Notes: generated by a model not told the origin, from the sequence alone. Positions 4,939-51,726 are shown, numbered from the stretch's first letter. The stretch: 51,726 nt of DNA from a virus (IMGVR_UViG_3300045988_076883:1-51726); one strand, 5' to 3'. Translations and numbers: made by a program.

Positions 4939-5209
4939 GAACTTTATCAAGGTGACATGGCAGCCGGAAGAGAACGGGAACCCGCCGACAGGGTTTGCTG
5001 TGATGGCGCAGGGCGGCGTGCGCGGGTCCATGATGGCCGCGGCCATTGTGGCACGCAGCGTTGTGAGCGTGATGGAAAAACAGGTCGGCCGAGAGCGGGC
5101 GAAAGCCAACTTGCTGGGCATGATCCGGCTGGTGCTGGAACAAGACGATGAAGTAATTCTTAGCGAGGGCGTAACGATTGCACTGCCGAGGAGAGTGAAG
5201 CCGGAATGA
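4931..5209 (+). CDS. Hypothetical protein, paralogue B (MNENFIKVTWQ...)
   Basis: Has the same ATGAATGA junction at 4931-4938 and shares the MNExxxKVxW start. Confidence 0.75.
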   Translation: MNENFIKVTWQPEENGNPPTGFAVMAQGGVRGSMMAAAIVARSVVSVMEKQVGRERAKANLLGMIRLVLEQDDEVILSEGVTIALPRRVKPE

Positions 5210-6129
5210 GCGAGGATTGGGGCCTTGTGACCCTGCCGACAAGCGGCGACCCGGAGAAGATCGCCATCGGGCGGTTGAAAGCGGCAAGCGACATGGCACT
5301 GAAGTATTACGGCACGCCGCTTGTGGTAACGACCAGCGGCGATAAGGACAGCAGCGTGTGCGTAGAGCTTGCACTTAGGGGGGGCATCCCGTTTGAAGTA
5401 CAGCACAACCACACAACTGCGGATGCGCCGGAGACAGTGCGGTTTGTACGGCAGGAGTTTGCCAGACTTGAAAATCTGGGCGTGAAATGCACCATCAACT
5501 ACCCCGTTTATAAGGGAAAGCGCACAAGCATGTGGAGTTTGATCCCGCAAAAGCTGATGCCGCCGACACGAATTATGCGGTACTGCTGCGCCGTGCTGAA
5601 AGAACAGGGCGGAAACAGGCGGTTCATCACAACTGGCGTGCGGTGGGCGGAAAGCAGCCGAAGAAAGCGAGACAGAGGCGTTTTTGAAGCGTACACCCGG
5701 AACAAAGAGAACAAAATCGTTTTGAAAGGCGAAGAACAGGAGCCGAGCAAAATCTTTGAGGGGTGCAAGGTGGCCGCAAAGCGCATAGTAAACCCCATTG
5801 TGGACTGGACGGACAATCAGGTGTGGAGCTTTTTGCAGGATGCAAAGGTGCCTGTCAACCCGTTGTATGAATGTGGGCTGGATCGTGTGGGGTGCATTGG
5901 ATGCCCACTCGCAAAGAAAAGTAAACGATATGCGGAGTTCCGACGCTGGCCTGCTTACGAGAAGCTCTACATACAAGCCTTTGACAGGATGCTTGATGAG
6001 CGCAGAGCGCGCGGAAAGCTGGACGGAAGCTGGATGATGGGCGGTACTGGGCTGGATGTATTCCGCTGGTGGATGGAAGAAGATGTGCTGCCCGGGCAAA
6101 TTTCTGTGGAGGACATTTTAGAGGACTGA
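5206..6129 (+). CDS. PAPS-reductase/PP-loop family protein (DndC/IbrA-like)
   Basis: PP-loop-like SGDKDS near the N-terminus. C-terminal Cys cluster CGLDRVGCIGCP. ATGA overlap with the upstream gene. Confidence 0.75.
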   Translation: MSEDWGLVTLPTSGDPEKIAIGRLKAASDMALKYYGTPLVVTTSGDKDSSVCVELALRGGIPFEVQHNHTTADAPETVRFVRQEFARLENLGVKCTINYPVYKGKRTSMWSLIPQKLMPPTRIMRYCCAVLKEQGGNRRFITTGVRWAESSRRKRDRGVFEAYTRNKENKIVLKGEEQEPSKIFEGCKVAAKRIVNPIVDWTDNQVWSFLQDAKVPVNPLYECGLDRVGCIGCPLAKKSKRYAEFRRWPAYEKLYIQAFDRMLDERRARGKLDGSWMMGGTGLDVFRWWMEEDVLPGQISVEDILED

Positions 6130-7886: not shown

Positions 7887-8132
7887 ATGTTGAGGATGGT
7901 TACGGCGACGGTGATCGCGGTATCGGTGCTGGGCGTATGCGCGGCATGGTGCTGCGGGCGGGACGCAGGATGGCGGGAAGCGACGCGGGCGGACGCACAC
8001 CGCTTGGGCGTGTACAAAGACTGGGTGTGGCACCTTGCGGAGAAATCCCGCGACTTGAACGATTTTAAGGCCCGGTATGCCGTGGCTATGACGCTGGACG
8101 AAGGAGAGGCGGAGGATGGGATGGGTATTTGA
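7887..8132 (+). CDS. Hypothetical small membrane-anchored protein
   Basis: N-terminal TM MLRMVTATVIAVSVLGVCAAW. The upstream part of the 7728 ORF looks non-coding. Start is uncertain. Confidence 0.5.
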   Translation: MLRMVTATVIAVSVLGVCAAWCCGRDAGWREATRADAHRLGVYKDWVWHLAEKSRDLNDFKARYAVAMTLDEGEAEDGMGI

Positions 8133-10158
8133 CACGCACCCGGCGGATTCACGGGTCGTGGGGCCGGTGAAGGTGGCAGGATGTGTGGTTGCGAGATACG
8201 GCACCGGGGGGGGCAATGCACCAATCGTGATACAGGAAGTGATATGCCGTGCAAGCACGCAGGCAAACGCAGAAACCGGGAAGAATGTTGCGACAACGCT
8301 GAGCCTTGACAAGGACAGAACGATCATAGCACACAAAAATGAAGCTGTGGCCCTGCAAGGGAACATTATTGACAGGGATGCAGGCATGAACGGAGCGGGC
8401 GTAGGAAAGGATGTGAGCTTTACCTTGAACACGGTGGACAGGCACGGCGTGGCCTACGATACGGGATGCCTGACGCCGGGAGAAGCGCAGGAACAGCGGT
8501 GCTACAGCGTGGACGCGCCAGCACCGACGCTGCAAAGCAGAGAGTGCGGAGGCGGACAGGGAAAATCATTTGTGCAGAGGGCGGGCGAAAATGTGCAGCC
8601 GAAATACATAGTGCGCCGCCTGATGCCGGTGGAGTGCGGCAGATTGCAAGGGTTCCCGGATGGATGGGGAGAGATCGAACAGCTGCCGCCGGACATGCCG
8701 GAGAAAACTGCTGCATTTTGGCGGCAGGTGTACGAAACAGACTGCGCGATCAAAGGCAAGAAGCCGCAGAAAAGCATACTGGAAAAGCCGGGCAAGCTGG
8801 CAGCGTGGCACAACGGGTTACATACTGACAGCGCCGAGTACAAGATGTGGGGCAACGGCATGGCGCTGCCGAACGCGCTGTTTTTTGTGCAGCGTGCCGT
8901 GGCGCGGGTTGCCATTGACACAGGAAAGGGCGCGGCAAATGTGAAGCTGGGCAGCATGTTTGACGGGTCCGGCACGATGCCGTTGTGTGCGGCGATGTGC
9001 GGTGCGCAGCCTGTTTGGGCAAGCGAGGTGGAGCCGTACCCTATTGCCGTGACGAAAACACACCTGCCGGGCATGAAGCACCTGGGGAGTGTTACCGACA
9101 TTTGCGGCGGGAACATCGAGCCGGTAGACATTATCACATTCGGCAGCCCGTGCCAGGACCTGAGCATTGCGGGAAAGCGGGCCGGACTGGACGGAAACAG
9201 GTCCGGGCTATTCCGGGAAGCGATACGCATTATTTTAGAAATGCTGGAAGCGACAGGGTGGAAATACCCGCGGTTCGTGCTGTGGGAGAATGTACCCGGG
9301 GCGCTATCATCAAACGGAGGGAAAGATTTTGAAACCGTACTCAACGAATTGCTGCGACTTACCGGGACAGATCAGTTTGTTCGACAGCGCGGAAAGTGGG
9401 GGGGCTTTGCAGGGTACGGAGCTGTGGCCTACCGACTTGTCAACGCGCAATACTGGGGAGTGCCCCAACGCAGACGCAGAGTATACGCTTGCTGCGATAC
9501 TGGCGGACGATCCGCCGACCAGATACTTTTTGAGCGTAAGAGCCATGGATGGAATTTTGAGCCGTGCATCCCGGCGGGGAAAACAGTTGCCGGAATTGCT
9601 GGTGACGGCTATTGCTGGCATGAAAGAATGGTGGCGGCAAAATCCGCTGGGGGGGGGTATGACCCCGCCTACACCATGAAGATACGGTCAGGATGCGAGG
9701 GCGGCGGCAAGGGTGCGCTGGTGCAGAATGACTTATCTGCCACGCTGGCGACGCATCAGGATCAGACAGTGTTTGCACCGGCAAGAGATAAATGCCTGCC
9801 TGTAAACATGATGCTTGCAACGAGATGCAAAGCGCTTGGCAGAGGAACAGGGCTTGGCGTTGGAGACATTGGTGAACCGCAGTACACAATAACCGCAGGG
9901 CATGAACATGCTGTGGCGTATGAGAACGGAACAGAACCGGTGGCGACGCATCAGAATCAGGCAGTGTTTGCACCGAGAGCGTTTAGCTTTGACAGTTTGG
10001 CAAGCAACAGTATGAAAAGCGCGAACCCGCACAGCGGATGCAGAGAGGTAGACACGGCGAAAACGCTGGATTGCGGAACGCCGGACCCGAATAGGAATCA
10101 AGGCGGGATTGTGATTATACAGAAGGGAAACGAACATGAAAAAAGTAATTGCGATTGA
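8116..10158 (+). CDS. DNA (cytosine-5) methyltransferase with circularly permuted motif order
   Basis: Motif IX-like RRLMPVECGRLQGFPDGW (from 8614) and motif X-like YKMWGNGMALP (from 8839) come before motif I MFDGSGT (8956), motif IV GSPCQDLS (from 9142), motif VI ENVPG (9286) and motif VIII QRRRRVY (9466). Confidence 0.85.
   Translation: MGWVFDTHPADSRVVGPVKVAGCVVARYGTGGGNAPIVIQEVICRASTQANAETGKNVATTLSLDKDRTIIAHKNEAVALQGNIIDRDAGMNGAGVGKDVSFTLNTVDRHGVAYDTGCLTPGEAQEQRCYSVDAPAPTLQSRECGGGQGKSFVQRAGENVQPKYIVRRLMPVECGRLQGFPDGWGEIEQLPPDMPEKTAAFWRQVYETDCAIKGKKPQKSILEKPGKLAAWHNGLHTDSAEYKMWGNGMALPNALFFVQRAVARVAIDTGKGAANVKLGSMFDGSGTMPLCAAMCGAQPVWASEVEPYPIAVTKTHLPGMKHLGSVTDICGGNIEPVDIITFGSPCQDLSIAGKRAGLDGNRSGLFREAIRIILEMLEATGWKYPRFVLWENVPGALSSNGGKDFETVLNELLRLTGTDQFVRQRGKWGGFAGYGAVAYRLVNAQYWGVPQRRRRVYACCDTGGRSADQILFERKSHGWNFEPCIPAGKTVAGIAGDGYCWHERMVAAKSAGGGYDPAYTMKIRSGCEGGGKGALVQNDLSATLATHQDQTVFAPARDKCLPVNMMLATRCKALGRGTGLGVGDIGEPQYTITAGHEHAVAYENGTEPVATHQNQAVFAPRAFSFDSLASNSMKSANPHSGCREVDTAKTLDCGTPDPNRNQGGIVIIQKGNEHEKSNCD
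9746..9975 (+). repeat. Two 35-nt direct repeats (2 mismatches) 195 nt apart inside the methyltransferase
   Basis: TGGCGACGCATCAG(G/A)ATCAG(A/G)CAGTGTTTGCACCG occurs at 9746-9780 and 9941-9975. It encodes ATHQ(D/N)Q(T/A)VFAP. Confidence 0.9.
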
Positions 10159-17769: not shown

Positions 17770-19416
17770 TCAGGCGGGGTTGTGGGCGGCAAGCTGCATA
17801 AGCGTTGCGGTGGTGGGGATCAGGTGGCGGGCCATCGTGTCGTTGTAGGAGGTCTCGCCCTCGAAGCTGTCCACGACGGAGCGATCTGCCGTGCTCATGT
17901 CGTGGTAGGTCTTTTTGCCGTAGGACGGCGGGAGCCAGCCCTTTTTCTGGGATGCAAAGATGTTGAAGGATTTCAGCACATCGGCGTTGGTGAACTCAAT
18001 GTGACAGGTGCCCTTCTTGTAGAACGTGGCGGTGAAGTAGTGCAGCTTGATCTTTGCGGTCTGGCCGTTGTCCTCGGCAGCTTTGAGGGCGGCGCGGAGG
18101 TCGTCGCCGTTGTAGGCGGTGCCGTTGGTGTCGAGGAAGTGGAGCGTTTTCTCGATGTTGGCGATCTCGTCTGCTGCGCAGGTGGGACGGAGCTTGTCGG
18201 ACCAGTACGAATAGACATTGCAGCGGAAAATGACGCGCTTGCCGATCTTATACGCCTCGTTGGTGCACCAACCGTTGTAATAGTGGACATTTTTGCTGTA
18301 CTCGCTGTTGTAGTGGAGGTTGGTCCAGTCGTCGAACAGGCGGATGATCTCGGATTCGATGTTTGCAACGATGTTGCGAGAGATTTCCTCGCGCACGGTC
18401 AGGATGTTGTAGGGGGTAAAATCGTAGTGGCGAAGATCGTTAATGCGCTTGCGGTAGTCGTTCTGCATCGTCTGCGTCATGGCATCGCGGATCTGCGGCA
18501 GGTCGAAAAGCTGCTCCCAGTAGATGGCACGGAGATCGCACAGCGCGTCGTTGTAGCCTTTGTTGAGGGAAACACAGGGCGCGGGGGCGCTGCTGTCGCC
18601 CTGCTTTTTGGGCAGGGTGAACAGAGAGGAAATGCCATCGTATTCTTCATACAGGCGGGCCAGACCGTCCGCGGCGGCGTTGTAGCGCTCGACTGCTGCC
18701 GTGATGGGGTCATTGCTGACGAGGGCGGCCAGGTCGGGCGCGGCCTGGTAGCGCTGTGTCGTCTCGGCGTTGAGCTCTAAGCGGATGCGGGAGACCGGCG
18801 GCGCGGGCGGGATCGTGACAAAAACGAGCGCAACCTCCACCGCGGTTTTGCGGGCGGCGTGGGTGAAAGCGTCCTGCTTGTAGGTGATCCGGGCGTTGTA
18901 CTTGGCAAGCAGGGAGGCAAGCTCCTTGCGCTCGTTGGTGCAGGGGTTGCGGATCGTCTCGGCGTTGAGGATGCAGCGCACTTCCCCGCCCCGCTCCATG
19001 ATGTGCAGGGCGTGCAGCAGGTGACGCGCACCCTCGGAAAACGGCGGATTCATGATAATTGCCTTATAGTGGGCGCGGGGCGTGAAGGTGAGGAAATCGT
19101 CGTGGATGACGCGGAAGCCGTTTTCTTTGAGGGTGGCGCGGAGGGCGGCGGACTGCTCGATGCAATCAAGCTGCAAGCGCGTGAGGGTGTCGTTGTTGGT
19201 GTTGGCGCGGTAGTCGCTGGCGCGTTTGTTGCCGACGTACCAGCACCCGGCGGCTTTTTCGATGGCGCGGGCGAGGTCGCCAGAACCGGCGGACGGCTCC
19301 AGGATGGGGCCGCCTGCATACTCGATGCTGTGACCGTCGATCTTGAGACCGGCGAGAAGCTCCGCGGCGAGGGCCGGGGGCGTTGGGTAGTAGTCTTTGC
19401 TGTCGTTGGGGATCAT
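17770..19416 (-). CDS. Orphan N6-adenine DNA methyltransferase with a large C-terminal domain (DUF4942-like)
   Basis: Motif I LEPSAGSGDL and motif IV IIMNPPF. No adjacent restriction gene. Confidence 0.85.
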   Translation of the reverse strand: MIPNDSKDYYPTPPALAAELLAGLKIDGHSIEYAGGPILEPSAGSGDLARAIEKAAGCWYVGNKRASDYRANTNNDTLTRLQLDCIEQSAALRATLKENGFRVIHDDFLTFTPRAHYKAIIMNPPFSEGARHLLHALHIMERGGEVRCILNAETIRNPCTNERKELASLLAKYNARITYKQDAFTHAARKTAVEVALVFVTIPPAPPVSRIRLELNAETTQRYQAAPDLAALVSNDPITAAVERYNAAADGLARLYEEYDGISSLFTLPKKQGDSSAPAPCVSLNKGYNDALCDLRAIYWEQLFDLPQIRDAMTQTMQNDYRKRINDLRHYDFTPYNILTVREEISRNIVANIESEIIRLFDDWTNLHYNSEYSKNVHYYNGWCTNEAYKIGKRVIFRCNVYSYWSDKLRPTCAADEIANIEKTLHFLDTNGTAYNGDDLRAALKAAEDNGQTAKIKLHYFTATFYKKGTCHIEFTNADVLKSFNIFASQKKGWLPPSYGKKTYHDMSTADRSVVDSFEGETSYNDTMARHLIPTTATLMQLAAHNPA

Positions 19417-19501
19417 GGTGTGTTACCTCCTGTTTTTTGGGTTGTGGCGGCGGGCCGTTGTGCAGCTGGCCCGCGGGGCGCTGTTGCCGTTGTGGGGGCT
19501 G

Positions 19502-19843
19502 CCGTTGGTCTTATGCCCGGCGGCGTTGTGCTGGGGCGTGCCCTCTCTCGCGGGGCTGGCGGGTTTCACTTTTTGCGCCCGGGGCGCGGGATAAGAACGC
19601 GGCGAACCTGGCCGGAACGACCGGCGGCGGGTGCAATCTGTTTTGTGGGGAGGTGCACCGGCTCCCGTTGGGCTTATGCCCGGCGGCGTTGTGCTGGGGC
19701 GTGCCCTCTCTCGCGGGGCTGGCGGGTTTCACTTTTTGCGCCCGGGGCGCGGGATAAGAACGCGGCGAACCTGGCCGGAACGACCGGCGGCGGGTGCAAT
19801 CTGTTTTGTGGGGAGGTGCACCGGCTCCCGTTGGGCTTATGCC
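19502..19843. repeat. 163-bp tandem repeat (2 full units plus 16 nt) in the methyltransferase leader
   Basis: Units start at 19502, 19665 and 19828. Units 2 and 3 are identical over the shared part. Confidence 0.9.
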
Positions 19844-19924
19844 GTCCCCCCGGCGGGGCGGCTGCCATTGTGTGGCGATGGGTGCGCGTTGTTGTGATCG
19901 TTGCCGGGGTCGTGTTATGTTGTT

Positions 19925-19999
19925 ACCCATGAGCGCCCGCCACATTGTGGCGGCGGCTGGGCTTGCACCAGCGGCGCGGGATCGCGTCGGCCTTGCGGG
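19925..19999 (-). repeat. Structured intergenic element, copy E4
   Basis: Minus sense reads CCCGCAAGGCCGA..GGTGCAAGCCCAG..GCGCTCATGGGT. It abuts the stop codon at 20000. Confidence 0.85.
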
Positions 20000-20311
20000 T
20001 CAGGATACATAACCGCAATAGCGATAGTCTAGGATGATGTCGTCGGTGACATCGTCCGGCGTGGCGTTGTCGGACATCGTGCAGGCGACGACGTCGCCGG
20101 TCAGCCAATCGTCGCAGCCGGTGAGGGTGAACAGCTGGCCGGACCCGGTGCGGAATGTGACCAGCTCGGCGGCGCGGTCCACCTGGACGACCACACCGGC
20201 CAGCGGGTAGGTGCTGGGCGCGGGCGGCTCGGCTGGCGTTGTGGGGGCCGTCTTGATGATGTAAACGGCGGCGGTGGTGATGTAGGCGGCGATGACGATT
20301 GCCTTGTGCAT
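20000..20311 (-). CDS. Small membrane-anchored or secreted protein
   Basis: N-terminal hydrophobic MHKAIVIAAYITTAAVYII followed by a Pro-rich linker. AAGGAGG RBS. Confidence 0.75.
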   Translation of the reverse strand: MHKAIVIAAYITTAAVYIIKTAPTTPAEPPAPSTYPLAGVVVQVDRAAELVTFRTGSGQLFTLTGCDDWLTGDVVACTMSDNATPDDVTDDIILDYRYCGYVS

Positions 20312-20344: not shown

Positions 20345-20427
20345 GATCGGGTGGACCCATGAGCGCCGCCCCGTTGCGCGGGGCGCCGGGCTTGCACCGG
20401 CGGCGCGTTATGCGTCGGCCTTGCGGG
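20345..20427 (-). repeat. Structured intergenic element, copy E3
   Basis: Same consensus. Begins 3 nt after the stop codon at 20431. Confidence 0.85.
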
Positions 20428-20430
20428 TCG

Positions 20431-20646
20431 TTACCAGATGCGCTTGATCTCGGGGAGCAGGCCGAGACGGCGGTAGGTGGTTGTTATACTCTCGTTACCG
20501 CAGAACCAACCGCAGTGTATAAACTCGTCGCGGGCTTGCTCAATCGTGATTGCACCGGCGAGAAAATCGCGGCGCAGGGACTTGTCAACGGTGGGAATAT
20601 CGAAAACGCGGTTTAGAGGGGAAATATGGGGACGTTTGCGGGTCAT
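20431..20646 (-). CDS. Hypothetical small protein (71 aa)
   Basis: RBS context ACAGGAGGTAACACACCATG is identical to that of the methyltransferase gene. Confidence 0.75.
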   Translation of the reverse strand: MTRKRPHISPLNRVFDIPTVDKSLRRDFLAGAITIEQARDEFIHCGWFCGNESITTTYRRLGLLPEIKRIW

Positions 20647-20680: not shown

Positions 20681-20765
20681 AATCGGGTGGACCCATGAGC
20701 GCCCGCCGCGTTGTGGCGGCGGCTGGGCTTGCACCAGCGGCGGCGGATGCCGTCGGCCTTGCGGG
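20681..20765 (-). repeat. Structured intergenic element, copy E2
   Basis: Same consensus. Begins 10 nt after the stop codon at 20776. Confidence 0.85.
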
Positions 20766-20775
20766 TCGTGGCAGG

Positions 20776-21441
20776 TCATGCGAGGACCTGCGCGGCGAGG
20801 GTGGCGAAATCGAGCTGCACCGGCTCCGGCGTGGGGGCATCGTCATGCAAGGTGTGATGCTCGACGACTGCGACGACGGCGGCGGGCTTGCTGGGTTCCG
20901 GCGTGGGGGCCGGTGCCGGGATCGTGGGCGCTGCCGGTGCCGTTGTGGCGGCGACCTGCTGCGCGGCGCGGCGGGCCTTGCGGGCGGCGGCAAGCTCGGC
21001 ATTGCGGGCGGCGATCTCGTCCGGCGTCTTGACGTGGACGGGGGCCGGGCGCTCGACCTGGGCGGCGGTGAACAAGTAGCAACGCTTCATGTAGTAGTGG
21101 GGGTCGGGGGCGTCGTCGCCGTTGTCGCTGCGCTGGGCCTTCGGGGGCTTGTCGGTCCAGCGCCACAGCATGGCGGAGATCGTGGCCTTCTGGCCGCGCT
21201 TTACCTGCAAGCCCTGGGCCTTCCATGTGTTGTAGGTGTGCAGGCTGTCGGCGATGGTAGCCTGTTCGGCGGTGTCGATGTAGTCGGCGGCGGTGCCGGT
21301 GCCGGTGGCCTCGGCCATAGCGGCGGCGCGGGCGGTGATCTGCTCCGGCGTGGCGAGCGTGGCGGCCAGGGCGTGGATCTCGGCGGGGGTGTAGGTGATG
21401 CCGACGGCTTCATAGATCAAAGTGTTATTATCGCGGGTCAT
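20776..21441 (-). CDS. Hypothetical protein with a weak ArdC-N-like motif and an Ala/Pro-rich C-terminal half
   Basis: TYNTWKAQGLQVKRGQKA resembles the TfxQaxxxGxxVrKGEKg signature of ArdC N-terminal domains. This is recalled from memory and not verified. Confidence 0.45.
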   Translation of the reverse strand: MTRDNNTLIYEAVGITYTPAEIHALAATLATPEQITARAAAMAEATGTGTAADYIDTAEQATIADSLHTYNTWKAQGLQVKRGQKATISAMLWRWTDKPPKAQRSDNGDDAPDPHYYMKRCYLFTAAQVERPAPVHVKTPDEIAARNAELAAARKARRAAQQVAATTAPAAPTIPAPAPTPEPSKPAAVVAVVEHHTLHDDAPTPEPVQLDFATLAAQVLA

Positions 21442-21477: not shown

Positions 21478-21561
21478 GATCGGGTGGACCCATGAGCGCC
21501 GCCCCGTTGCGCGGGGCGCTGGGCTTGCACCAGCGGCGGCGGATGCCGTCGGCCTTGCGGG
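21478..21561 (-). repeat. Structured intergenic element, copy E1
   Basis: Same consensus. Begins 2 nt after the stop codon at 21564. Confidence 0.85.
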
Positions 21562-21563
21562 CT

Positions 21564-21839
21564 TTACATGATGACGCCCCGGCTTTTCATGGCCTGCTTT
21601 AAGTCGTGGCTGCTGATGTTGCGCCAGTTTTCGGCCCAGTTGATGACGGCGTTTTGCGCCCAGAACGGAACCGCCAGCCGGTCGAGCTGATCCATGGAGA
21701 AACGGATTGACGCGTCGCAGCGGTCAAGGTTGCGCCGATCATTGGGGAACAGCTCGCGGATGTTGTAAAGCTCGGCGACCCAGAACGCCAGGCCGTCAAG
21801 CTCTTTGGCCTGCTTTTTTGTGCAAATAAACTCTTGCAT
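21564..21839 (-). CDS. Hypothetical protein (91 aa), first gene of the leftward accessory operon
   Basis: GGAGGATATAAAATG gives the RBS and start at 21839. The upstream part of the 302-aa ORF is repeat DNA plus promoter. Confidence 0.75.
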   Translation of the reverse strand: MQEFICTKKQAKELDGLAFWVAELYNIRELFPNDRRNLDRCDASIRFSMDQLDRLAVPFWAQNAVINWAENWRNISSHDLKQAMKSRGVIM

Positions 21840-22062: not shown

Positions 22063-22470
22063 CAGCCCGGCAGCAGATCGGCAACCAGGCAGCAGGACGG
22101 CAGCCCACAGCACCGGGCCGCCCCTTCATCATAAGGACGGACAGCGGCAGCCCGGCAGCAGGACGGCAGCCCGGCAGCAGATCGGCAACCAGGCAGCAGA
22201 TCGGCAGCAGGACGGCAGCCCGGCAGCAGCCCGGCAGCAGGACGGCAGCCCGGCAGCCCACAGCACCGGGCCGCCCCTTCATCATAAGGACGGACAGCGG
22301 CAGCCCGGCAGCAGGACGGCAGCCCGGCAGCAGATCGGCAACCAGGCAGCAGATCGGCAGCAGGACGGCAGCCCGGCAGCAGCCCGGCAGCAGGACGGCA
22401 GCCCGGCAGCCCACAGCACCGGGCCGCCCCTTCATCATAAGGACGGACAGCGGCAGCCCGGCAGCAGATC
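22063..22470. repeat. 153-bp tandem repeat array (about 2.7 units) built from GGCAGCAG(GA/AT)CGG sub-repeats
   Basis: The anchor CCCACAGCACCGGGCCGCCCCTTCATCATAAGGACGG occurs at 22104, 22257 and 22410. Confidence 0.9.
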
Positions 22471-42267: not shown

Positions 42268-42578
42268 TCGACACCGAAAACACAGAGATCATTTTGCAAG
42301 CGGGCAAGGCAGACGACAGCACCGCCGCCGATGTGCAGCGGTGCTTGAAGATGCTGTACAGCGCACACCCCGGCGAACAGGCACTTGACCGGGATTTTGG
42401 CATAGACCGGGAACCGCTGGGACTGCCCATGAGCAGCGCCAAAGCCCTGATGGCCGCCGAGTTTGTGGCGAAAACAGCGCGGTATGAGCCGAGGGCACGG
42501 GTGCTGCGGGTGGACTGGAACGAAAGCAATTTAGCCGAGGGAATTTTGATACCGAAGGTGGTGGTAGAAATTGTCTAA
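42264..42578 (+). CDS. Baseplate protein gpW/gp25-like
   Basis: About 100 aa, directly upstream of the baseplate J gene. ATGA coupling. Confidence 0.7.
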   Translation: MIDTENTEIILQAGKADDSTAADVQRCLKMLYSAHPGEQALDRDFGIDREPLGLPMSSAKALMAAEFVAKTARYEPRARVLRVDWNESNLAEGILIPKVVVEIV

Positions 42579-43728
42579 GATCGCAGAACTGGCGAACGCG
42601 CCGGAAGTGAGCTTTATCGGATACCTGACGCTGGACGAAGTAAAGCAGATGGTAAGCGATTGGTACAACGAGAAGTACAAGGAGCTGACCGGCACAGCCC
42701 CGGTGCTGGGAGATGCCGCGCCGGAAAAGCTGCTGCAATATGCCATTGCCATGCTGGGCGGGCAGACGCTGCAATACATCCAGGACAAGGGCAACGGAGA
42801 ACTGCTGGCAACGAGCTACGGCGGCTACCTGGACCAGCTGGCGGCAAACCTGGGCGTTACGCGCAAGCCTGCCGACAGAGCGACGGTGACGCTGCGGTTT
42901 ACGCTGGCGGACACGAGAAACAATGCTGTTGGCATACCAGCCGGTACGCGGGTGCGCACAGAAAACAGCCTGTACTTTAACACGCTGGACTATGCCGAGG
43001 TGAAAGCCGGAGAGCTGACAGCGGATGTGCTGGCACAGGCGCAGGAAGCGGGAGCCGAGAGCAACGGGATCGAAACTGGCGCGATCAACACGCTGGTTGA
43101 CCCCATCCCCTACATGGCGAGCGTGACGAACATTGAAGCCAGCCACGGCGGCACGGATGTGGAGGACGACGACACATTGAGTGAGCGCGTGTTCCGGGCA
43201 CCGAGCGTGTTTAGCTGCGCTGGCCCGGCGGATGCCTATGTGTATTACGCCAAGGCGTGGCGCAACGATGTGGCGGATGTGAAGATCGACAGCCCGGAAC
43301 CGTGCGAGGTGGACATTTACTTTTTGCTGGGCGACGACGGCAGACTGCCGACGGGCACCGAGCTGAAAGAGATGCAGGCATACTTTGCCGACGAGGAAAA
43401 AGTAAAACGCCCACTGACCGACAAGGTGGTGTGCAAGGCCCCGGCGGAGATCGGGTACAGCATTGACCTGACATACTACATTGCCAGCAGTGACCGAAAC
43501 AACGTGGCCGCCATACAGGAAGCCGTGACGGGCGCTGTGGAAAGCTACAAGGCATGGCAGCGCAAACTTGGCCGGGATATTAACCCGACAGAGCTGATCG
43601 CCGCGGTGCGCGGTGCTGGGGCCAAGAGGGTACGCTTGAAAGCCCCGGCGGATACCGTGGTAAGCGCGGCAGCCATTGCACGGTGCGACAGCGAAACCGT
43701 GAACTACGGAGGGCTGGAAGATGATTAG
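42571..43728 (+). CDS. Baseplate J-like protein (XkdT/gp47 family)
   Basis: GGTDVEDDDTLSERV motif. 385 aa. TTG start. Confidence 0.8.
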   Translation: MSKIAELANAPEVSFIGYLTLDEVKQMVSDWYNEKYKELTGTAPVLGDAAPEKLLQYAIAMLGGQTLQYIQDKGNGELLATSYGGYLDQLAANLGVTRKPADRATVTLRFTLADTRNNAVGIPAGTRVRTENSLYFNTLDYAEVKAGELTADVLAQAQEAGAESNGIETGAINTLVDPIPYMASVTNIEASHGGTDVEDDDTLSERVFRAPSVFSCAGPADAYVYYAKAWRNDVADVKIDSPEPCEVDIYFLLGDDGRLPTGTELKEMQAYFADEEKVKRPLTDKVVCKAPAEIGYSIDLTYYIASSDRNNVAAIQEAVTGAVESYKAWQRKLGRDINPTELIAAVRGAGAKRVRLKAPADTVVSAAAIARCDSETVNYGGLEDD

Positions 43729-44644
43729 TCTGCGGCAAGCGAAGCTGACGGACGCGATACCGGCAACGCTGGCGGCGCAGCCGTGGGCGCAGGCTTTGGC
43801 CTACGCCGAATGGCGGATGCGCGGCCTGCTGCTGGAATACGCGCAGGACAGCCAGATATACACAGCGCTGGACACATGCCCGGAAATGGTGCTGGATGCG
43901 CTGGCCGTAAGCTGGAAGGTGGGCTGGTACGATACCACCTACCCGGTAGAGATCAAGCGCAGCATTATCAAAAATAGTATGGCCGTGCGCCGGTATATGG
44001 GCACGGCGTGGAGCGCAAAAAAGGCACTGGGCGACGTGTGGCCGGACAGCGACATTGAGGAATGGTTCGACTACGGCGGAGAGCCGGGGCGGTTCCGCGT
44101 GGTGTGCAACGTGACGGACCCAACCGTTACCGCACAGGTGGAGACCATAGAGAACAACGTGATGCTGTACAAGCGGGAAAGTGCCCACTTGGACAGCATC
44201 AGCTTTATGGTGCGCCATGGTATACAGATTGGAGCGGTATACGAAACGTACAAATATGATGTGCCGCGGTGCGGGATGATCCGCTGCGGCACATGGCCAC
44301 GCCGCGCCACGCTGGGCAGAACCGAGGGCGCAGGGCTGGTGCTGACACCGGCAGCGGACGCCTTTGCGGCGGAGATGCCGCTTTGCGGTACACTGCCATA
44401 CCCTGCCACGCTGGGCCGCACAGGAGGTGCCGCGCTGGCCGTGGAGCCTGCGGCGGGTGCTTACCTTGCCGCGAACCCGGAAGCGGGCGCGGGAGACAGG
44501 AGCGGCACGGTGCCGCGCATTGCGACGATTGGCTATGCCGGACAGAGCGGTGCGCAGATTGCCCCGGAAGTGGGCGCTTACAAAGTTACCCCGGTACGAA
44601 GCGGCCAACGGCGCTGTGGGCATACCGTGGTGAAGAAATCGTGA
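43721..44644 (+). CDS. Tail protein I-like (P2 gpI family)
   Basis: N-terminal ...IYTALDTCPEMVLDALAVSW pattern. Position follows baseplate J. Confidence 0.7.
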   Translation: MISLRQAKLTDAIPATLAAQPWAQALAYAEWRMRGLLLEYAQDSQIYTALDTCPEMVLDALAVSWKVGWYDTTYPVEIKRSIIKNSMAVRRYMGTAWSAKKALGDVWPDSDIEEWFDYGGEPGRFRVVCNVTDPTVTAQVETIENNVMLYKRESAHLDSISFMVRHGIQIGAVYETYKYDVPRCGMIRCGTWPRRATLGRTEGAGLVLTPAADAFAAEMPLCGTLPYPATLGRTGGAALAVEPAAGAYLAANPEAGAGDRSGTVPRIATIGYAGQSGAQIAPEVGAYKVTPVRSGQRRCGHTVVKKS

Positions 44645-44662
44645 GGAAAGGAGGGGTAAAGG

Positions 44663-44983
44663 ATGGCGTTTTTTACCGAAGATTTTCTGAACGCAAGACG
44701 GGCGGACCTGCTGCGCAGTGTGCAGCGGTTCCAGTACCAGATCAACGGCGGAAGCTGGCGGGATGGTGAGATCAACAGCAAAAGCGTTGTGGGCAACGCT
44801 GTGATGGTATTTGTCAATGTGCCGAGTTCCGGCGCGGCGGATACCATTACCGGCGTGCGCGTGTACGACAACAACGACAAGCTGGCCGGACAGCAGGCCG
44901 TGAGCGTGAAGCGGACGAGCGTAAACGCGGCGCTGCTGCGCTTTGTGTTCCCGCTGACGGAAGCCAGCGCGGCAACGAGATGA
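44663..44983 (+). CDS. Hypothetical tail-fibre-module protein
   Basis: AAAGGAGGGG RBS. Confidence 0.75.
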   Translation: MAFFTEDFLNARRADLLRSVQRFQYQINGGSWRDGEINSKSVVGNAVMVFVNVPSSGAADTITGVRVYDNNDKLAGQQAVSVKRTSVNAALLRFVFPLTEASAATR

Positions 44984-45000
44984 AAGAGAGGTGAACGACT

Positions 45001-45537
45001 ATGTATGAACGCACATTCTGGCTGGACCATGTAGAGGACCAGAGCGGCGAGGTGATCCAGGAGGGCACGCCGCTGGACCAGGCGCACTTCAACAAAATGG
45101 AGGTAGGCATTGAGGACGCGAATCTTGCGCACAAGATCGTGATGATCTTTACGCGGTGGATCGAACGCAGGCTTGCCGCCATTGAGGGCGCCAGCGGGAC
45201 CCACACCACCGACATTGCCGGGATCAAGGCAAAGGACACGGCGCAGGACGGACGTCTGACGGCGCTGGAAAGCGAGACTGCCGCAGAGGTAAAGGAAGTT
45301 ACGCTGACCGCCAACAGCAACCCGTGGCCGTTTTGCAACGATGATAAGAACGTGATCCTGACTACTGTGCGCAAGAACACCAACTACACGGTGGATGTGT
45401 ACGTTAAGAGCGCAGCAGGCGGACGGCTGGGCGACATTACCGTGAGCGGCAAGGGCACGAACAGCTTTAAGGTCCGCCACGACGGCAGCGCCAAGACCGT
45501 GGTGCTGACTTTGAAAATTACGGGAGGTATGAAGTGA
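45001..45537 (+). CDS. Tail fibre-like protein
   Basis: N-terminal W.DHV.......IQEGTPL.QAHFNKME.GI is a pattern common to Firmicutes phage fibre proteins. Confidence 0.65.
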   Translation: MYERTFWLDHVEDQSGEVIQEGTPLDQAHFNKMEVGIEDANLAHKIVMIFTRWIERRLAAIEGASGTHTTDIAGIKAKDTAQDGRLTALESETAAEVKEVTLTANSNPWPFCNDDKNVILTTVRKNTNYTVDVYVKSAAGGRLGDITVSGKGTNSFKVRHDGSAKTVVLTLKITGGMK

Positions 45538-46028
45538 TGAAAGTTACCGAACTGAACGAGGGCAAGAAGATCGCCTACGCTGTGAAGAAAACCGTGCTGA
45601 CGCTGGACGGCGGGCGCATTGCGCTGGACTTGCAGAAGTACCAGAAGGACTACCCCGTTACGCTGGACTTTATGACAGACGGCGAGGGCAACCTGCTGAT
45701 GAACGCTTTTGACAGCCTGCGTGCCTATGTGGCGGAAATCCGCCTGCCTGCCTACGAAACCGAAACCGTGGAGGTTGAGGACGAGGACGCAAAGGACAGC
45801 ACCGAGGAAGCAGCCGAAGATACCACCCCGGCGGACGAGCAGGCCGCCGCCGAGGAAGCAGGCGTGACCGAGGACGAGCAGCAGGGGCAGGACGCCGAGC
45901 CTGCAACGATGGCCGCAAAGCAGACCAGGACTGTGACACGCCGCCTGCCGCTGGACATGAGCAAGGTCGAGCTTGACCTGTTTGCCATTGACGGCATTTA
46001 CATCAACCAGCTGGACGGCGAATTTTAA
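45537..46028 (+). CDS. Hypothetical acidic tail-fibre-module protein
   Basis: Coupled start (GTGATG). Strongly acidic central region. Confidence 0.7.
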   Translation: MKVTELNEGKKIAYAVKKTVLTLDGGRIALDLQKYQKDYPVTLDFMTDGEGNLLMNAFDSLRAYVAEIRLPAYETETVEVEDEDAKDSTEEAAEDTTPADEQAAAEEAGVTEDEQQGQDAEPATMAAKQTRTVTRRLPLDMSKVELDLFAIDGIYINQLDGEF

Positions 46029-46041
46029 GGAGGAATGAAGT

Positions 46042-47136
46042 ATGGCAAACAACTTTGATGCAATGCGCATGGCCGTGCAGGCCGTGTTCCCCACCAATGA
46101 TGTGCTGATGGACGACAAGGACGAGCCGTCCATCATGGTGTACATCCCGGCGTTCCGCCTGTGTGATGTGCTTTCGACCAGCGATACCAGCGTGCACCCG
46201 GCGTTCCGCATGAACGGCAAGGAGATTGCAGGCTTCTACATGGGCAAGTACCAGACGAAGCACTACAATGGCCGCGCCTACAGCCTGCCCGCACAGGACC
46301 CCGCCAACAGCCAGAACTACGACCAGTTCCGCCAGCAGGCCGCCGCCAAGGGCGCGGGCTGGCATGAGACGACCAACGCCGAGTGGGCCGCCATTGCGCT
46401 GTGGTGCCACAAGAACGGCTGCGAGCCGAAGGGCAACAACAACTACGGCAAGGATACCAGCGAGAGCGGGTACATCGCCATTCCTGCGCCGGGTGTGCAG
46501 GACAACAACAAGACCGCCCGTGTGCTGACCGGCACCGGTCCGATCACTTGGAGCCACAACGGCCAGATGGACGGTATTTTTGACATGAACGGCAACGTCT
46601 GGGAGTGGGTGCTTGGGCTGCGTCTGGTCAAGGGCGAGTTGCAGATCATTGCGGACAACAATGCCGCAGACAGCTCCTGCGATTCGAGCGCAAGTTCTGC
46701 CGCATGGAAAGCCATCAAGGCAAGCGACGGAACCCTGATTACCCCGGACGGGAACGGCACTACCGAGGGTTCCGTCAAGCTGGACTTTATCAGCAACAAG
46801 GGCGTGTGGAGCGCCAACATGACGGACCGCAAGGACGAGGGACGCGGTTGCAGCTTCAAGGATGTTACCGCGGATTCTACCGTAGTCGATGCCGCAAAGC
46901 TGCTGCTTATGAGCCTTGCGCTGATGCCGGACACCGCGCTGACGGGCACCGGCATTGATGCAACCTACGGCGGTGACTACTTCTACTTCAACAACGGCGC
47001 GGATGAGCGGTGCCCGCCTCGCGGCGGCAGCTGGTACAATGGCGGCAATGCGGGCGTGTTCTACTTGGACCTCAGCGGCCCGCGCTCGAATACCTGGAGC
47101 CACATTGGCGGGCGCTGCGCTTTTGTAAAGCAGTAA
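46042..47136 (+). CDS. DGR target (variable) protein, FGE-sulfatase/C-type-lectin fold, receptor-binding candidate
   Basis: GNVWEWV motif. The C-terminus GGSWYNGGNAGVFYLDLSGPRSNTWSHIGGRCAF carries the VR. Sits in the tail-fibre module. Confidence 0.9.
   Translation: MANNFDAMRMAVQAVFPTNDVLMDDKDEPSIMVYIPAFRLCDVLSTSDTSVHPAFRMNGKEIAGFYMGKYQTKHYNGRAYSLPAQDPANSQNYDQFRQQAAAKGAGWHETTNAEWAAIALWCHKNGCEPKGNNNYGKDTSESGYIAIPAPGVQDNNKTARVLTGTGPITWSHNGQMDGIFDMNGNVWEWVLGLRLVKGELQIIADNNAADSSCDSSASSAAWKAIKASDGTLITPDGNGTTEGSVKLDFISNKGVWSANMTDRKDEGRGCSFKDVTADSTVVDAAKLLLMSLALMPDTALTGTGIDATYGGDYFYFNNGADERCPPRGGSWYNGGNAGVFYLDLSGPRSNTWSHIGGRCAFVKQ
47007..47123 (+). repeat. DGR variable repeat (VR)
   Basis: A 117-nt gapless match to 47677-47793. 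The 11 mismatches all lie at TR adenines. Confidence 0.92.
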
Positions 47137-47157
47137 GCTGGACCCTGATGCGCTGGG

Positions 47158-47177
47158 GTCTGCGCGATAGCGCAGAC
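47158..47177 (+). promoter_or_regulatory. GC hairpin downstream of the VR (DGR target-recognition hairpin candidate)
   Basis: GTCTGCGC-gata-GCGCAGAC lies about 35 nt after the VR end, as described for the BPP-1 DGR. Confidence 0.6.
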
Positions 47178-47184
47178 ACAAACC

Positions 47185-47215
47185 CCGCGCGGCTTTGAGC
47201 CGCGCCGAATTTTAC
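47185..47215 (+). terminator. Terminator-like hairpin after the target gene
   Basis: GCGCGGC-tttga-GCCGCGC followed by GAATTTTA. Confidence 0.55.
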
Positions 47216-47229
47216 AGGAGGTGTTGACT

Positions 47230-47637
47230 GTGCCGAGAAATGCCGAGGTGCCGCCCCAGCGGGCGGCTGGCGAAGCACAATACCAACCGTTTTGGCTGCG
47301 CGAGAAAACCAAAGAAATGCTGCATTATGGATATAAGCTGACAATGACGTTCCCACGGAAAAGCAAAGAGCTTGCCGATGAAATGCGCCGCACCATGATC
47401 AGCATGTACAGAATGACGGTTGAGTTAGATAAGAAGTGCTACAAGAAAACGACCACACAAACGCTGGACGTTGAGCTGGCATGGCTGCGCGAGCTGGTAG
47501 TGATGGCAAGTGATAAGGATTTCTACGGTGATAAAATGCAACCGCCCCTTACCATGCACCAGCGGGAAGCGTGGGCGAAAATGAACGATGAAATCGGACG
47601 GCTGCTGGGCGGCTACCTAAAGACGCTGAAACAGTAG
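47230..47637 (+). CDS. avd: Accessory variability determinant (Avd, four-helix-bundle protein)
   Basis: Small basic helical protein between target and TR (..FPRKSKELADEMRR..). AGGAGG RBS. Start is uncertain (47221, 47230 or an internal ATG). Confidence 0.8.
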   Translation: MPRNAEVPPQRAAGEAQYQPFWLREKTKEMLHYGYKLTMTFPRKSKELADEMRRTMISMYRMTVELDKKCYKKTTTQTLDVELAWLRELVVMASDKDFYGDKMQPPLTMHQREAWAKMNDEIGRLLGGYLKTLKQ

Positions 47638-47676
47638 ACGGACGTTTTTCATAAACCGGGAATGTGCTATTTTACG

Positions 47677-47793
47677 GCGGTGCCCGAATCGCGGCGGCAA
47701 CTGGAACAATGGCGGCAATGCGGGCGTGTTCAACTTGAACCTCAACAACCCGCGCTCGAATACCTGGAACAACATTGGCGGGCGCTGCGCTTT
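47677..47793 (+). repeat. DGR template repeat (TR)
   Basis: Rich in AAC/AAT triplets. The invariant partner of the VR. Followed by about 180 nt of spacer before the RT. Confidence 0.92.
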
Positions 47794-47976
47794 ACGATCA
47801 ATACACACGCATGGTGGCGGATGTTCGCGCCGGATATGAGGGCCGCTGCTTACGAGCGGCGGTCGGTGTGTGAACTTAAAGGAGCGCATTTCCGTTCCGG
47901 GCGTTGAACCCGGAAAAAATGTGAATTGCCCGGGAAGCAGAGATGCGACACCGGGCGGAGCGAGAAGTAAAAATTT

Positions 47977-49209
47977 GTGAGTAAAAAGCTCGGAGAGCCG
48001 GTAGCGCTGGCACGGGCAGAGGATGGGCACACGGTCATTGGGCCGGGTGCCTTTGCTGTTATGACGGACTTTGCGTGGCTGGAACGGGCAAACCGCAACG
48101 CACGCAAGGGGAAAAGATACCGCGAGGAAGTGCGGTATTTCCACCAGAATCTTGACGGCAACCTGCTGGACATACAGCGGGATGTGAGGGCGGGCGCCTA
48201 CCGAACAGGCGGCTACCGGCATTTGTGGGTGCAGGTGCCGAAGAAACGGCTTGTGATGGCGCTGCCCTACCGTGACCGCATTGTACAGTGGAGCGTATAC
48301 CAACTGCTGAACCCGTATTTTGACCGCACGTTTATTGCAGACAGCTACGCTTGCCGCGTAGGCAAAGGGAGCCACAAGGCTGTTGGGCGGCTGCAATACT
48401 GGCTGCGGCAGGTGGACAGGAGCATATACCCGGATTGGTACTACCTGAAACTGGATATAAGCAAGTATTTTTACCGCGTAGATCATGCGGTGCTGCTGGA
48501 AATACTGGGCAGGCGGATCACAGACCCGGATGTTATGACCCTGCTGGAACGGGTGATCGACAACCCGAACGAGCCGTTTGGACTGCCACCGGGCAAGAAG
48601 CCGGAGGACGTGGCGTTTGAAAGCTGGCTGTACAACGTGGGGATGCCGATAGGCAACCTGCTGAGCCAGATGTTCGCCAACATTGTGCTGAACGAGCTTG
48701 ACCAGTATTGCAAGCACGTCTTGAAGCTGCACTGCTACATCCGCTACATGGACGACATACTGGTGCTGGGGCCGGACAAGGAACAGCTACAGCAATGCCG
48801 GGATGCCATAGCGGCTTACCTGGGAGCGGTGCTGCATTTGGACCTGAACGCCAAGACCTGCATACGGCCCGTGAGCATGGGCATTGAATTTGTGGGGCAA
48901 CGGGTTTGGGCAACGCACGCGGTACTGCGCAAGAGTACGGCGCGGCGGATGAAGCGCGAGGTACGCAAGATCAGCGAGGATGTGCGCGACGGCGTTATTA
49001 CCCGGCAGGAGTATGAACGGCGGGTGGCAAGCATACGCGGCATGATGGACCACACGAACAGCGGTGCGCTGCGCTGGCGGCTTAACGAGATAACATTGAA
49101 CATCGTAGGTGAAGAATATGGACAACTGCCTTATGGCCGAGGCGACAGTGATCGAAAAGCTGTGCGCGGTGGTGGAGCTGCAAAGCGAGATCATCCGCGT
49201 GCAGCATGA
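47977..49209 (+). CDS. DGR reverse transcriptase
   Basis: Contains YACRVGKGSHKAV, LKLDISKYFYRVDH, IGNLLSQMFANIVLNELD and YIRYMDDILVLG (YMDD). GTG start. Confidence 0.93.
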   Translation: MSKKLGEPVALARAEDGHTVIGPGAFAVMTDFAWLERANRNARKGKRYREEVRYFHQNLDGNLLDIQRDVRAGAYRTGGYRHLWVQVPKKRLVMALPYRDRIVQWSVYQLLNPYFDRTFIADSYACRVGKGSHKAVGRLQYWLRQVDRSIYPDWYYLKLDISKYFYRVDHAVLLEILGRRITDPDVMTLLERVIDNPNEPFGLPPGKKPEDVAFESWLYNVGMPIGNLLSQMFANIVLNELDQYCKHVLKLHCYIRYMDDILVLGPDKEQLQQCRDAIAAYLGAVLHLDLNAKTCIRPVSMGIEFVGQRVWATHAVLRKSTARRMKREVRKISEDVRDGVITRQEYERRVASIRGMMDHTNSGALRWRLNEITLNIVGEEYGQLPYGRGDSDRKAVRGGGAAKRDHPRAA

Positions 49210-49309
49210 TGTGATCCACCAGCTGGGCGGCTATGATCCTACGGAGGAACAGACCGCGCAGGCGGACGGCATGAGCCGGGAACTGTGCGGGGACATTTTT
49301 GACGTTTGA
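49118..49309 (+). CDS. Hypothetical small protein
   Basis: AGGTGA RBS lies 6 nt before the ATG at 49118. Overlaps the RT 3' end. Confidence 0.55.
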   Translation: MDNCLMAEATVIEKLCAVVELQSEIIRVQHDVIHQLGGYDPTEEQTAQADGMSRELCGDIFDV

Positions 49310-51526: not shown

Positions 51527-51571
51527 GTACACAGTAGAGTACACAGTAATGTACACAGTAGCGTACACAGT
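51527..51571. repeat. Four tandem GTACACAGT(A) repeats (12-bp period), arm-type site candidates
   Basis: Starts at 51527, 51539, 51551 and 51563. The same word recurs at 131 and 142 on the other side of the att core. Confidence 0.8.
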
Positions 51572-51630: not shown

Positions 51631-51690
51631 CGAAAAAGATAAAAAGAATCAGCCGACATTCAACGATTTATCGTTAAATATCGGCTGATT
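51631..51690 (-). terminator. Intrinsic terminator abutting the 3' end of the tRNA-like sequence
   Basis: On the minus strand, CCA is followed by AATCAGCCGA...TCGGCTGATT (51647-51656 / 51681-51690, with the inner palindrome AACGAT-tt-ATCGTT), then CTTTTTATCTTTTT. Confidence 0.7.
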
Positions 51691-51726
51691 TGGCGGAGTA
51701 AGAGAGATTTGAACTCTCGCGGCGGT
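51672..51726. repeat. Terminal direct repeat, copy 2 (identical to 1-55)
   Basis: Same 55-mer. The window ends exactly at the repeat end. Confidence 0.97.

Follow-up and report, generated by a model that had tools for sequence, protein, structure and literature searches.

A complete diversity-generating retroelement with a C-type-lectin-fold target in a temperate gut-type phage

The cassette and its repeats

The subject of this report is a diversity-generating retroelement (DGR) that occupies positions 46042 to 49209 of a viral DNA of 51,726 nt (IMGVR_UViG_3300045988_076883:1-51726), the whole of which is referred to below as the window. An earlier note, made from the sequence alone, had described here a target gene, an Avd-like gene, a template repeat (TR) and a reverse transcriptase (RT), and our analysis bears out this canonical order of target, avd, TR and RT. 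We consider it very likely (probability about 0.9) that the locus is a complete, single-target, phage-encoded DGR which has been active in the recent history of the phage lineage. The differences between the TR and the variable repeat (VR) fall on TR adenines only, and so does the variation of the VR among near-identical genomes. The elements, all on the plus strand, are listed here with the basis of each assignment.

46042..47136, +, DGR target gene, 364 amino acids, predicted FGE-type C-type-lectin variable protein like TaqVP and Mtd (phmmer against PDB, PHROG)
47007..47123, +, VR (TR/VR alignment, allele comparison)
47107..47123, +, GC-rich 3′ end of the VR, GGCGGGCGCTGCGCTTT, resembling the site of initiation of mutagenic homing (IMH) (same sequence in the TR at 47777-47793; homology stops abruptly past it)
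47158..47177, +, putative hairpin or cruciform for target recognition, GTCTGCGC-GATA-GCGCAGAC, stem of 8 bp, loop of 4 nt (fold)
47187..47205, +, second GC-rich hairpin, followed by AATTTTA, terminator-like, between the target gene and avd (fold)
47230..47637, +, avd accessory gene, 135 amino acids from the GTG at 47230, the open reading frame (ORF) being open from 47221 (Pfam bAvd, PHROG)
47677..47793, +, TR, non-coding, 117 nt with 26 adenines (TR/VR alignment)
47794..47976, +, spacer (Sp) from TR to RT, structured RNA, 183 nt (covariation)
47822..47921, +, conserved spacer core: long bipartite hairpin with a UACG tetraloop, invariant AAAGG...UUCC, 7-bp hairpin and A-rich tail (covariance model R2)
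47872..47881, +, spacer segment ending in the invariant AAAG, pairing with 47790-47799 (CTTTACGATC); proposed priming region (in-register pairing)
47928..47956, +, spacer 3′ hairpin GCCCGG...GAGA...CCGGGC (aligns with the last helix of Rfam RT-14)
47977..49209, +, DGR RT, 410 amino acids, GTG start (Pfam RVT_1, PDB, PHROG)

Recomputation of the repeat alignment reproduced exactly what had been counted by hand in the earlier note: VR and TR run without gaps over 117 nt at an offset of 670 and differ at 11 positions (VR 47017, 47018, 47030, 47035, 47062, 47068, 47075, 47077, 47078, 47099 and 47101). The TR base is A at all 11, and mismatches at other bases, which the note had named as grounds for giving up the assignment, were not found. 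All 11 occupy codon positions 1 or 2 of AAC triplets of the TR (AAT in the case of one codon) when read in the frame of the ORF at 46042-47136, again as claimed. The TR contains 26 A in its 117 nt, and the probability that 11 of 11 mismatches would fall on A by chance is 8.9e-9. The pair was also listed by an independently run repeat finder, as family D4, and similarity is lost abruptly in the flanks on both sides. The shared IMH-like ending, beyond which the repeats had been said to diverge, was located at 47107-47123 and 47777-47793.

The VR corresponds to amino acids 322-361 of the target and contains 26 diversifiable positions. Twelve AAY codons hold 24 of the 26 TR adenines, the remainder lying in ACC and ATT codons. 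DGRs characteristically have their VR at the 3′ end of the target gene and place the variable adenines in AAY codons, which keeps stop codons from arising; 47007-47123 has this arrangement. The theoretical repertoire amounts to 4^26, or about 4.5e15 DNA sequences and about 2.1e15 peptides. An A-masked TR scan of both strands of the whole window yielded no second VR, the best other site agreeing at 47 of 91 non-A positions.

The GC-rich hairpin described earlier downstream of the VR begins 34 nt past the VR end and is present in both the minimum free energy and the centroid folds (z = -5.1 for the 96-nt region). Guo et al. (2011) characterized the hairpin of phage DGRs as a 7-10 bp GC-rich stem with a 4-nt 5′-GRNA loop, located 4-34 bp after the VR; the hairpin at 47158-47177 satisfies this pattern, GATA being a GRNA loop. 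Relatives carry a hairpin at the same distance with other stems and with GAGA, GGTA or GATA loops (GAGA or GGTA in the related loci L021 and L020). The sequence features expected of a DGR target-recognition site, namely a shared GC-rich 3′ end and a downstream hairpin, are present. The second hairpin, at 47187-47205, was passed over by a consensus terminator scan because its T run comprises only four T.

The Avd-like gene passes the Pfam bAvd model at 65.8 bits (cut-off 40) and matches the PHROG 'Avd protein of DGR' (1e-21), which provides the accessory protein expected of a DGR; gene callers in identical contigs place its start at the equivalent of 47230. Both motifs attributed to the RT were located, IGNLLSQ at amino acids 225-231 (nt 48649-48669) and YMDD at amino acids 257-260 (nt 48745-48756). 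DGR RTs carry (I/V/L)GxxxSQ in domain 4 and YxDD in domain 5, and the SQ motif is specific to them (Schillinger 2012). The protein matches Pfam RVT_1 (1e-19) and PHROG 1423 (2.7e-125), and its nearest solved relative is the DGR RT of phage BPP-1 (8ub7; E 9e-44, 153 bits), compared with 2e-16 (63 bits) for a group II RT and approximately 4e-14 for a retron-type RT. By motifs and similarity the RT is thus assigned to the DGR RTs, and the outcome that the earlier note had held to speak against a DGR, an RT outside that group, did not arise. Our literature search turned up no paper on structure 8UB7. RT residues past approximately 375 are unmatched in relatives of 51-61% identity, and the RT match of L021 contains frame breaks. 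A small ORF at 49148-49309, which gene calls in identical contigs give as 53 amino acids, shares 62 nt with the 3′ end of the RT gene, which ends at 49209.

The lectin fold ascribed to the target receives support from a nearly full-length phmmer match of residues 6-362 to PDB 5VF4 (E 4e-56). This structure is TaqVP, the DGR variable protein of Thermus aquaticus, which adopts an FGE-type C-type-lectin fold with its VR at amino acids 341-374, and the target VR aligns with this C-terminal, VR-bearing stretch. Mtd, the variable protein of BPP-1, was not among the phmmer PDB matches. The target further matches PHROG 2889 (E 1e-122), and its C-terminal 58 residues match the 'tail protein' family phrog_5302. 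Homology to a solved structure hence identifies the product as a DGR variable protein of predicted C-type-lectin fold (FGE type).

Spacer RNA and a predicted priming site

The spacer, estimated previously at about 180 nt, measures 183 nt and shows the hallmarks of a structured RNA. In an RNAalifold consensus of 11 sequences, 17 of 28 pairs are compensatory, and shuffle and slide controls support the structure; compensatory changes among relatives are likewise seen in the outer stem of the hairpin at 47928-47956. The covariance model R2, whose consensus tetraloop is yACG, was built with explicit structure and replaced a model, R1, derived from a MAFFT alignment in which divergent rows were misaligned and the long hairpin was lost. 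R2 matches 63 of 85 related RT loci, always directly upstream of the RT, and in 45 loci the match begins 1-30 nt past an A-biased TR. Across 53 distinct spacers, 93.6% of cells are paired (36-58% in slid controls) and covariation is seen in 24 of 28 pairs, figures that have to be read with the reservation that this alignment (A5, 53 sequences) was fitted to the model and so favours the structure.

The sole Rfam match of the spacer is to RT-14 (RF02921), a weak yet full-length alignment over 47821-47956 scoring 26.8 bits (E 0.054-0.29) against a gathering score of 48.1, so that by the Rfam criterion the window spacer is not a member. Eight AT-rich relatives attain the gathering score at the same position (51-71 bits), R2 connects them to the window, and in four of the eight the RT-14 match adjoins an A-biased TR. 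Rfam gave no match in seven other relatives (L018, L020-L024 and, as L001, the Faecalibacterium phage FP_Lagaffe, hereafter Lagaffe); only the AT-rich relatives reached RT-14. The motifs RT-1 to RT-19 were described as RNA motifs near RT genes without an assigned function; RT-10 was found between TR and RT in BPP-1, and the authors speculated that other RT motifs might serve other DGRs (Weinberg et al., 2017). We found no paper that treats RT-14 together with a DGR. Since the relatives that score as RT-14 do so at the spacer position, abutting the TR, we read RT-14 as the RNA that forms the spacer in this DGR clade, and the window spacer as a GC-rich, sub-threshold version of it.

Pairing between TR and spacer is conserved as well. 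On average, 8.08 of 10 positions are paired across 26 distinct loci, compared with 6.35 +/- 0.17 for shuffled partners (0 of 2000 shuffles), and compensatory changes such as CTTCT/AGAAG and CTTATA/TATAAG are seen. The nucleotide that primes in BPP-1, Sp A56, is paired with TR U118, which neighbours G117, where templating begins (Handa et al., 2018). By analogy, we predict priming at approximately 47880/47881 and a cDNA start at approximately 47789/47790. We lean, with some reserve, towards a wider proposal: RT-14 would serve a large clade of gut-phage DGRs as a self-priming spacer RNA, in which pairing of the invariant AAAG with the 3′-terminal CUUU of the TR fixes both the priming nucleotide and the first templated base at these positions, and the hairpin inserted in the subgroup of the window would create a three-way junction. 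If this is true, the 'template-primed' mechanism of BPP-1 would extend to a second, unrelated-looking spacer family, and a motif that has no assigned function would gain a definite role, that of spacer in DGRs. For a DGR clade distinct from that of BPP-1, the pairing between TR and spacer yields a specific, testable prediction of where priming takes place.

Variation among relatives and its interpretation

Metagenome contigs from several samples, among them L002-L004, L006 and L007, were obtained by looking up the exact sequence of a 178-amino-acid neighbour protein. L002 is identical to the window across 12.5 kb, and L002-L004 all have the TR of the window. Outside the VR, over some 12.4-12.5 kb, L003 differs from the window at 4 positions and L004 at 6; within the 117-nt VR they differ at 15 and 19 positions, respectively (Fisher P 5e-28 and 1e-34), every one of them at a TR adenine. 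VR turnover is therefore seen between genomes that are more than 99.95% identical elsewhere, and the variation that the earlier note would have had confined to A-templated positions is indeed adenine-specific among relatives at the level of contigs. When close relatives from IMG/VR are included, all 26 TR-adenine positions vary across 10 distinct VR alleles. The few VR differences at other bases mirror substitutions in the same genome's own TR; such repetition of non-A changes in the cognate VR is a signature of copying from TR to VR. All 16 related loci with a VR/TR pair, as well as 61 of 79 more distant loci, show A-biased mismatches. L006 and L007, independent assemblies of the same phage, stop within the VR, at window positions 47029 and 47016, at the first variable codons. 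Assemblers tend to break at sites that are heterogeneous within a sample, and these ends can be taken as an indirect sign of VR heterogeneity in the two samples. Taken together, the sequences point to unidirectional, adenine-mutagenic transfer from TR to VR at the population level, which is the activity expected of a DGR.

From these elements the following mechanism can be proposed. The avd-TR-spacer-RT region would be transcribed, presumably as one unit, and the structured spacer RNA would be bound by RT and Avd. Pairing of the invariant AAAG of the spacer with the 3′-terminal CUUU of the TR would allow a spacer nucleotide near the predicted site to prime cDNA synthesis, after which the RT would copy the TR faithfully save opposite adenines. 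The adenine-mutagenized cDNA would then replace the VR at the 3′ end of the gene at 46042-47136, guided by the shared GC-rich end and by the downstream hairpin with its GRNA loop. As a result, the 12 AAY codons and two further codons would be randomized, giving about 2e15 peptides on the ligand-binding face of a C-type-lectin-fold protein. If this protein is built into the virion, the most likely consequence is that the host-surface ligand bound by the particle is altered; a role of the target in receptor binding and in changes of host range is suggested by the position of its gene and by its homology to other variable proteins.

Several observations weigh against this reading or limit it. The VR of the window is the allele least diverged from its TR, with 11 of 26 adenines changed as compared with 13-22 in relatives, and the RT gene, which starts with ATG in L003, L004 and other close relatives, starts with GTG at 47977 in the window and in L002; together, these two features may indicate lower RT expression or activity. 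Differences between contigs are a record of past activity in the lineage, which is distinct from present activity in this genome or within one sample. The Avd match to NCBIfam DivGenRetAVD (65.8 bits) lies under the equivalog cut-off of 80, and no promoter for avd-TR-RT emerged from a promoter and terminator scan around avd, whose hits were at or below shuffle expectation. The Pfam model FGE-sulfatase (PF03781) reaches 20.1 bits against a cut-off of 23.3, and only over residues 111-190, and the fold assignment of the target therefore rests on the homology to TaqVP. For a tail or receptor-binding role in the virion it is gene position that speaks, and PHROG assigns no function to the three ORFs that separate the target from the baseplate genes. 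As regards the host, an exact-pattern spacer scan of GTDB genomes gave no match, and an RT-based scan returned only distant RTs (27-33% identity) from metagenome-assembled genomes of Collinsella and Turneriella.

That the repeats came about by ordinary duplication or recombination beside an unrelated retron or group II intron RT, with a coincidental A pattern, we regard as excluded. The top NCBIfam match of the RT is a group II intron RT/maturase model; this library, however, has no DGR RT model, and all scores lie far below their cut-offs (group_II_RT_mat 122 bits against 300, retron St85 RT 34 against 235, and the DRT models as well). Rfam matched neither a group II intron nor a retron RNA in the window, the RT has the DGR-specific SQ motif (Schillinger 2012), and the A-only pattern, with a chance probability of 9e-9, recurs in dozens of related loci. 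It is also conceivable, if very improbable, that the VR/TR pattern is a relic of past activity and that this copy is non-functional. The GTG start of the RT and the low divergence of the VR would fit such a history, as would the report by Gulyaeva et al. (PMC11792537), who saw no read-level activity in several intact Faecalibacterium phage DGRs, Lagaffe_CP included. Nevertheless, all ORFs are intact with their catalytic motifs kept, and GTG is a normal bacterial start codon. Relatives with identical or almost identical copies of the TR, the spacer RNA, the hairpin and the GC-rich end show VR turnover, and it has taken place between genomes with less than 0.05% divergence elsewhere.

A different objection concerns the target rather than the retroelement. 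The DGR could be real and its target no tail fibre that binds a host receptor, in which case diversification might be directed at another ligand such as mucus or environmental glycans, or the protein might be baseplate-associated or non-virion, and host range would be unchanged. This we think unlikely, although the following speaks for it: the best PHROG family of the target is without assigned function, its sole 'tail protein' match is confined to the C-terminal 58 residues, which are the generic C-type-lectin and VR part, TaqVP has no known ligand, and Gulyaeva et al. (PMC11792537) described the function of Faecalibacterium phage DGR targets as unknown, the target in phage Mushu resembling a capsid decoration protein. 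The gene lies, on the other hand, in the tail module as the earlier note had it, preceded by homologues of baseplate J and P2-I and followed by the endolysin and holin genes, which is the usual site of fibre and receptor-binding genes, and the homologue in Lagaffe was reported to be similar to Mtd of BPP-1. An active, phage-encoded DGR with a single target is the reading that we retain. The ten natural VR alleles, which occur on almost identical genomes, would be well suited to tests that relate VR sequence to host range in a gut phage.

Genome context and known counterparts

The phage is temperate and of gut type, and the window appears to be its complete genome. The two ends share a 55-nt overlap (1-55 and 51672-51726; total about 51.7 kb), so the genome is either circular or flanked by att sites. 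The genes upstream of the DGR and the integrase gene are located as follows.

156-1319, -, tyrosine integrase
42571-43728, +, baseplate J-like
43721-44644, +, P2 gpI-like
44663-44983, 45001-45537 and 45534-46028, +, three small conserved ORFs

The order of genes is baseplate hub, gpU, baseplate J, P2 gpI, the three small ORFs, the DGR, an amidase/glucosaminidase endolysin and a holin, and the upstream part of it, 42571-46028, has the same order in Lagaffe (24-38% identity). The minus strand from 19 to about 95 resembles, by eye, the 3′ part of a type II tRNA, with a GCU (Ser) anticodon loop, a long variable arm, a T arm and a CCA end. ARAGORN reported no complete tRNA gene, and the Rfam tRNA model did not match this fragment at the start of the window. 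It lies beside the integrase gene and probably represents an attP directed at a tRNA-Ser gene. Four copies of GTACACAG, spaced 12 nt apart, closely precede the att-like core (51527-51570), and two further copies, GTACACAG and GTACACAA, closely follow it at 131-149; GTACACAR has 13 matches in the window as against 1.5 expected. These repeats are probably arm-type binding sites of the integrase.

Apart from the DGR, the window contains four twister-sister ribozymes (RF02681; 77-83 bits in Rfam against a gathering score of 34), which coincide with the repeat families D3, D5 and D8. All four sit in gaps between genes, each followed after about 40 nt by a repeated module (D6) made up of a ribosome-binding site and ATG.

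19920-20003, 20350-20431, 20686-20769 and 21483-21565, -, twister-sister ribozymes
20776-21441, -, D6-started ORF, weak match to ArdC-N
20431-20646, -, D6-started ORF
20000-20311, -, D6-started ORF
17770-19416, -, D6-started ORF, DUF4942 and methyltransferase

The region looks like an operon that is cut into single-gene mRNAs by ribozymes. It is flanked by two sets of tandem repeats, one at 19497-19843 (163-nt unit, 2.1 copies, 98% identity) and one at 22063-22467 (153-nt unit, 2.6 copies, 96% identity), the latter with an internal 19/30-nt periodicity rich in CGGCAGC. In the early region, 5206-6129 and 8116-10158 (+) and 17770-19416 (-) encode a PAPS-reductase-domain protein, a C-5 cytosine DNA methylase and the DUF4942/methyltransferase protein; these genes probably constitute an anti-restriction or DNA-modification module.

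Among known systems, the closest isolate is Lagaffe, whose DGR has been published (MG711461; Cornuault et al., 2018; Gulyaeva et al., 2024, PMC11792537). The latter study also reported DGRs in other Faecalibacterium phages, evidence of activity at the population level, and a second VR in Lagaffe. Like the window, Lagaffe has baseplate J, P2-I, three small ORFs, an Mtd/TaqVP-like target, Avd, TR, RT, small ORFs, endolysin and holin. Its VR/TR mismatches are A-only, and its spacer aligns with the conserved core of the window spacer and displays the same TR-spacer pairing. The window target is 53% identical to the 'Mtd-like' protein of Lagaffe and the RTs are 46% identical, whereas the DNA is similar (about 67%) across only 32% of the cassette, so that the two are different phages. 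They differ further in that two VRs were reported in Lagaffe and the window has one, and in the spacer, which measures 183 nt in the window and approximately 113 nt in Lagaffe, the window having an extra 28-nt linker hairpin past the TR.

Similarly, the window spacer shares with RT-14 (RF02921; Weinberg et al., 2017) its place immediately before an RT gene and the succession of its elements: an outer helix that starts at the TR end is followed by a hairpin, UUAAAGG...UCC, another hairpin, a run rich in A and a final hairpin on the 3′ side. Unlike RT-14, it is GC-rich, contains the inserted linker and remains below the gathering score. The target resembles TaqVP (5VF4) over its full length and has a C-terminal VR at the same place of the FGE-type C-type-lectin fold; in contrast to TaqVP it is phage-encoded and belongs to a tail/baseplate module.

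The comparison with the prototype BPP-1 (mtd-avd-TR-brt) extends to the order of target, avd, TR, spacer and RT, the presence of Avd, the adenine-specific differences, the shared GC-rich 3′ end and the hairpin downstream of the VR, with its 8-bp stem and 4-nt GRNA loop. Both also have a structured spacer with bases that pair with the TR 3′ end beside the priming site, which in the window is a predicted one. In contrast to BPP-1, the target of the window is far closer to TaqVP (E 4e-56) than to Mtd, the spacer is RT-14-like where that of BPP-1 falls in Rfam RT-10, the VR/TR homology halts at GCGCTTT without a partly matching IMH/IMH* extension, and the hairpin lies 34 nt past the end of homology. 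With these differences, the locus is a DGR of a known system class, of the canonical BPP-1 type, and has a published close analogue in Lagaffe.

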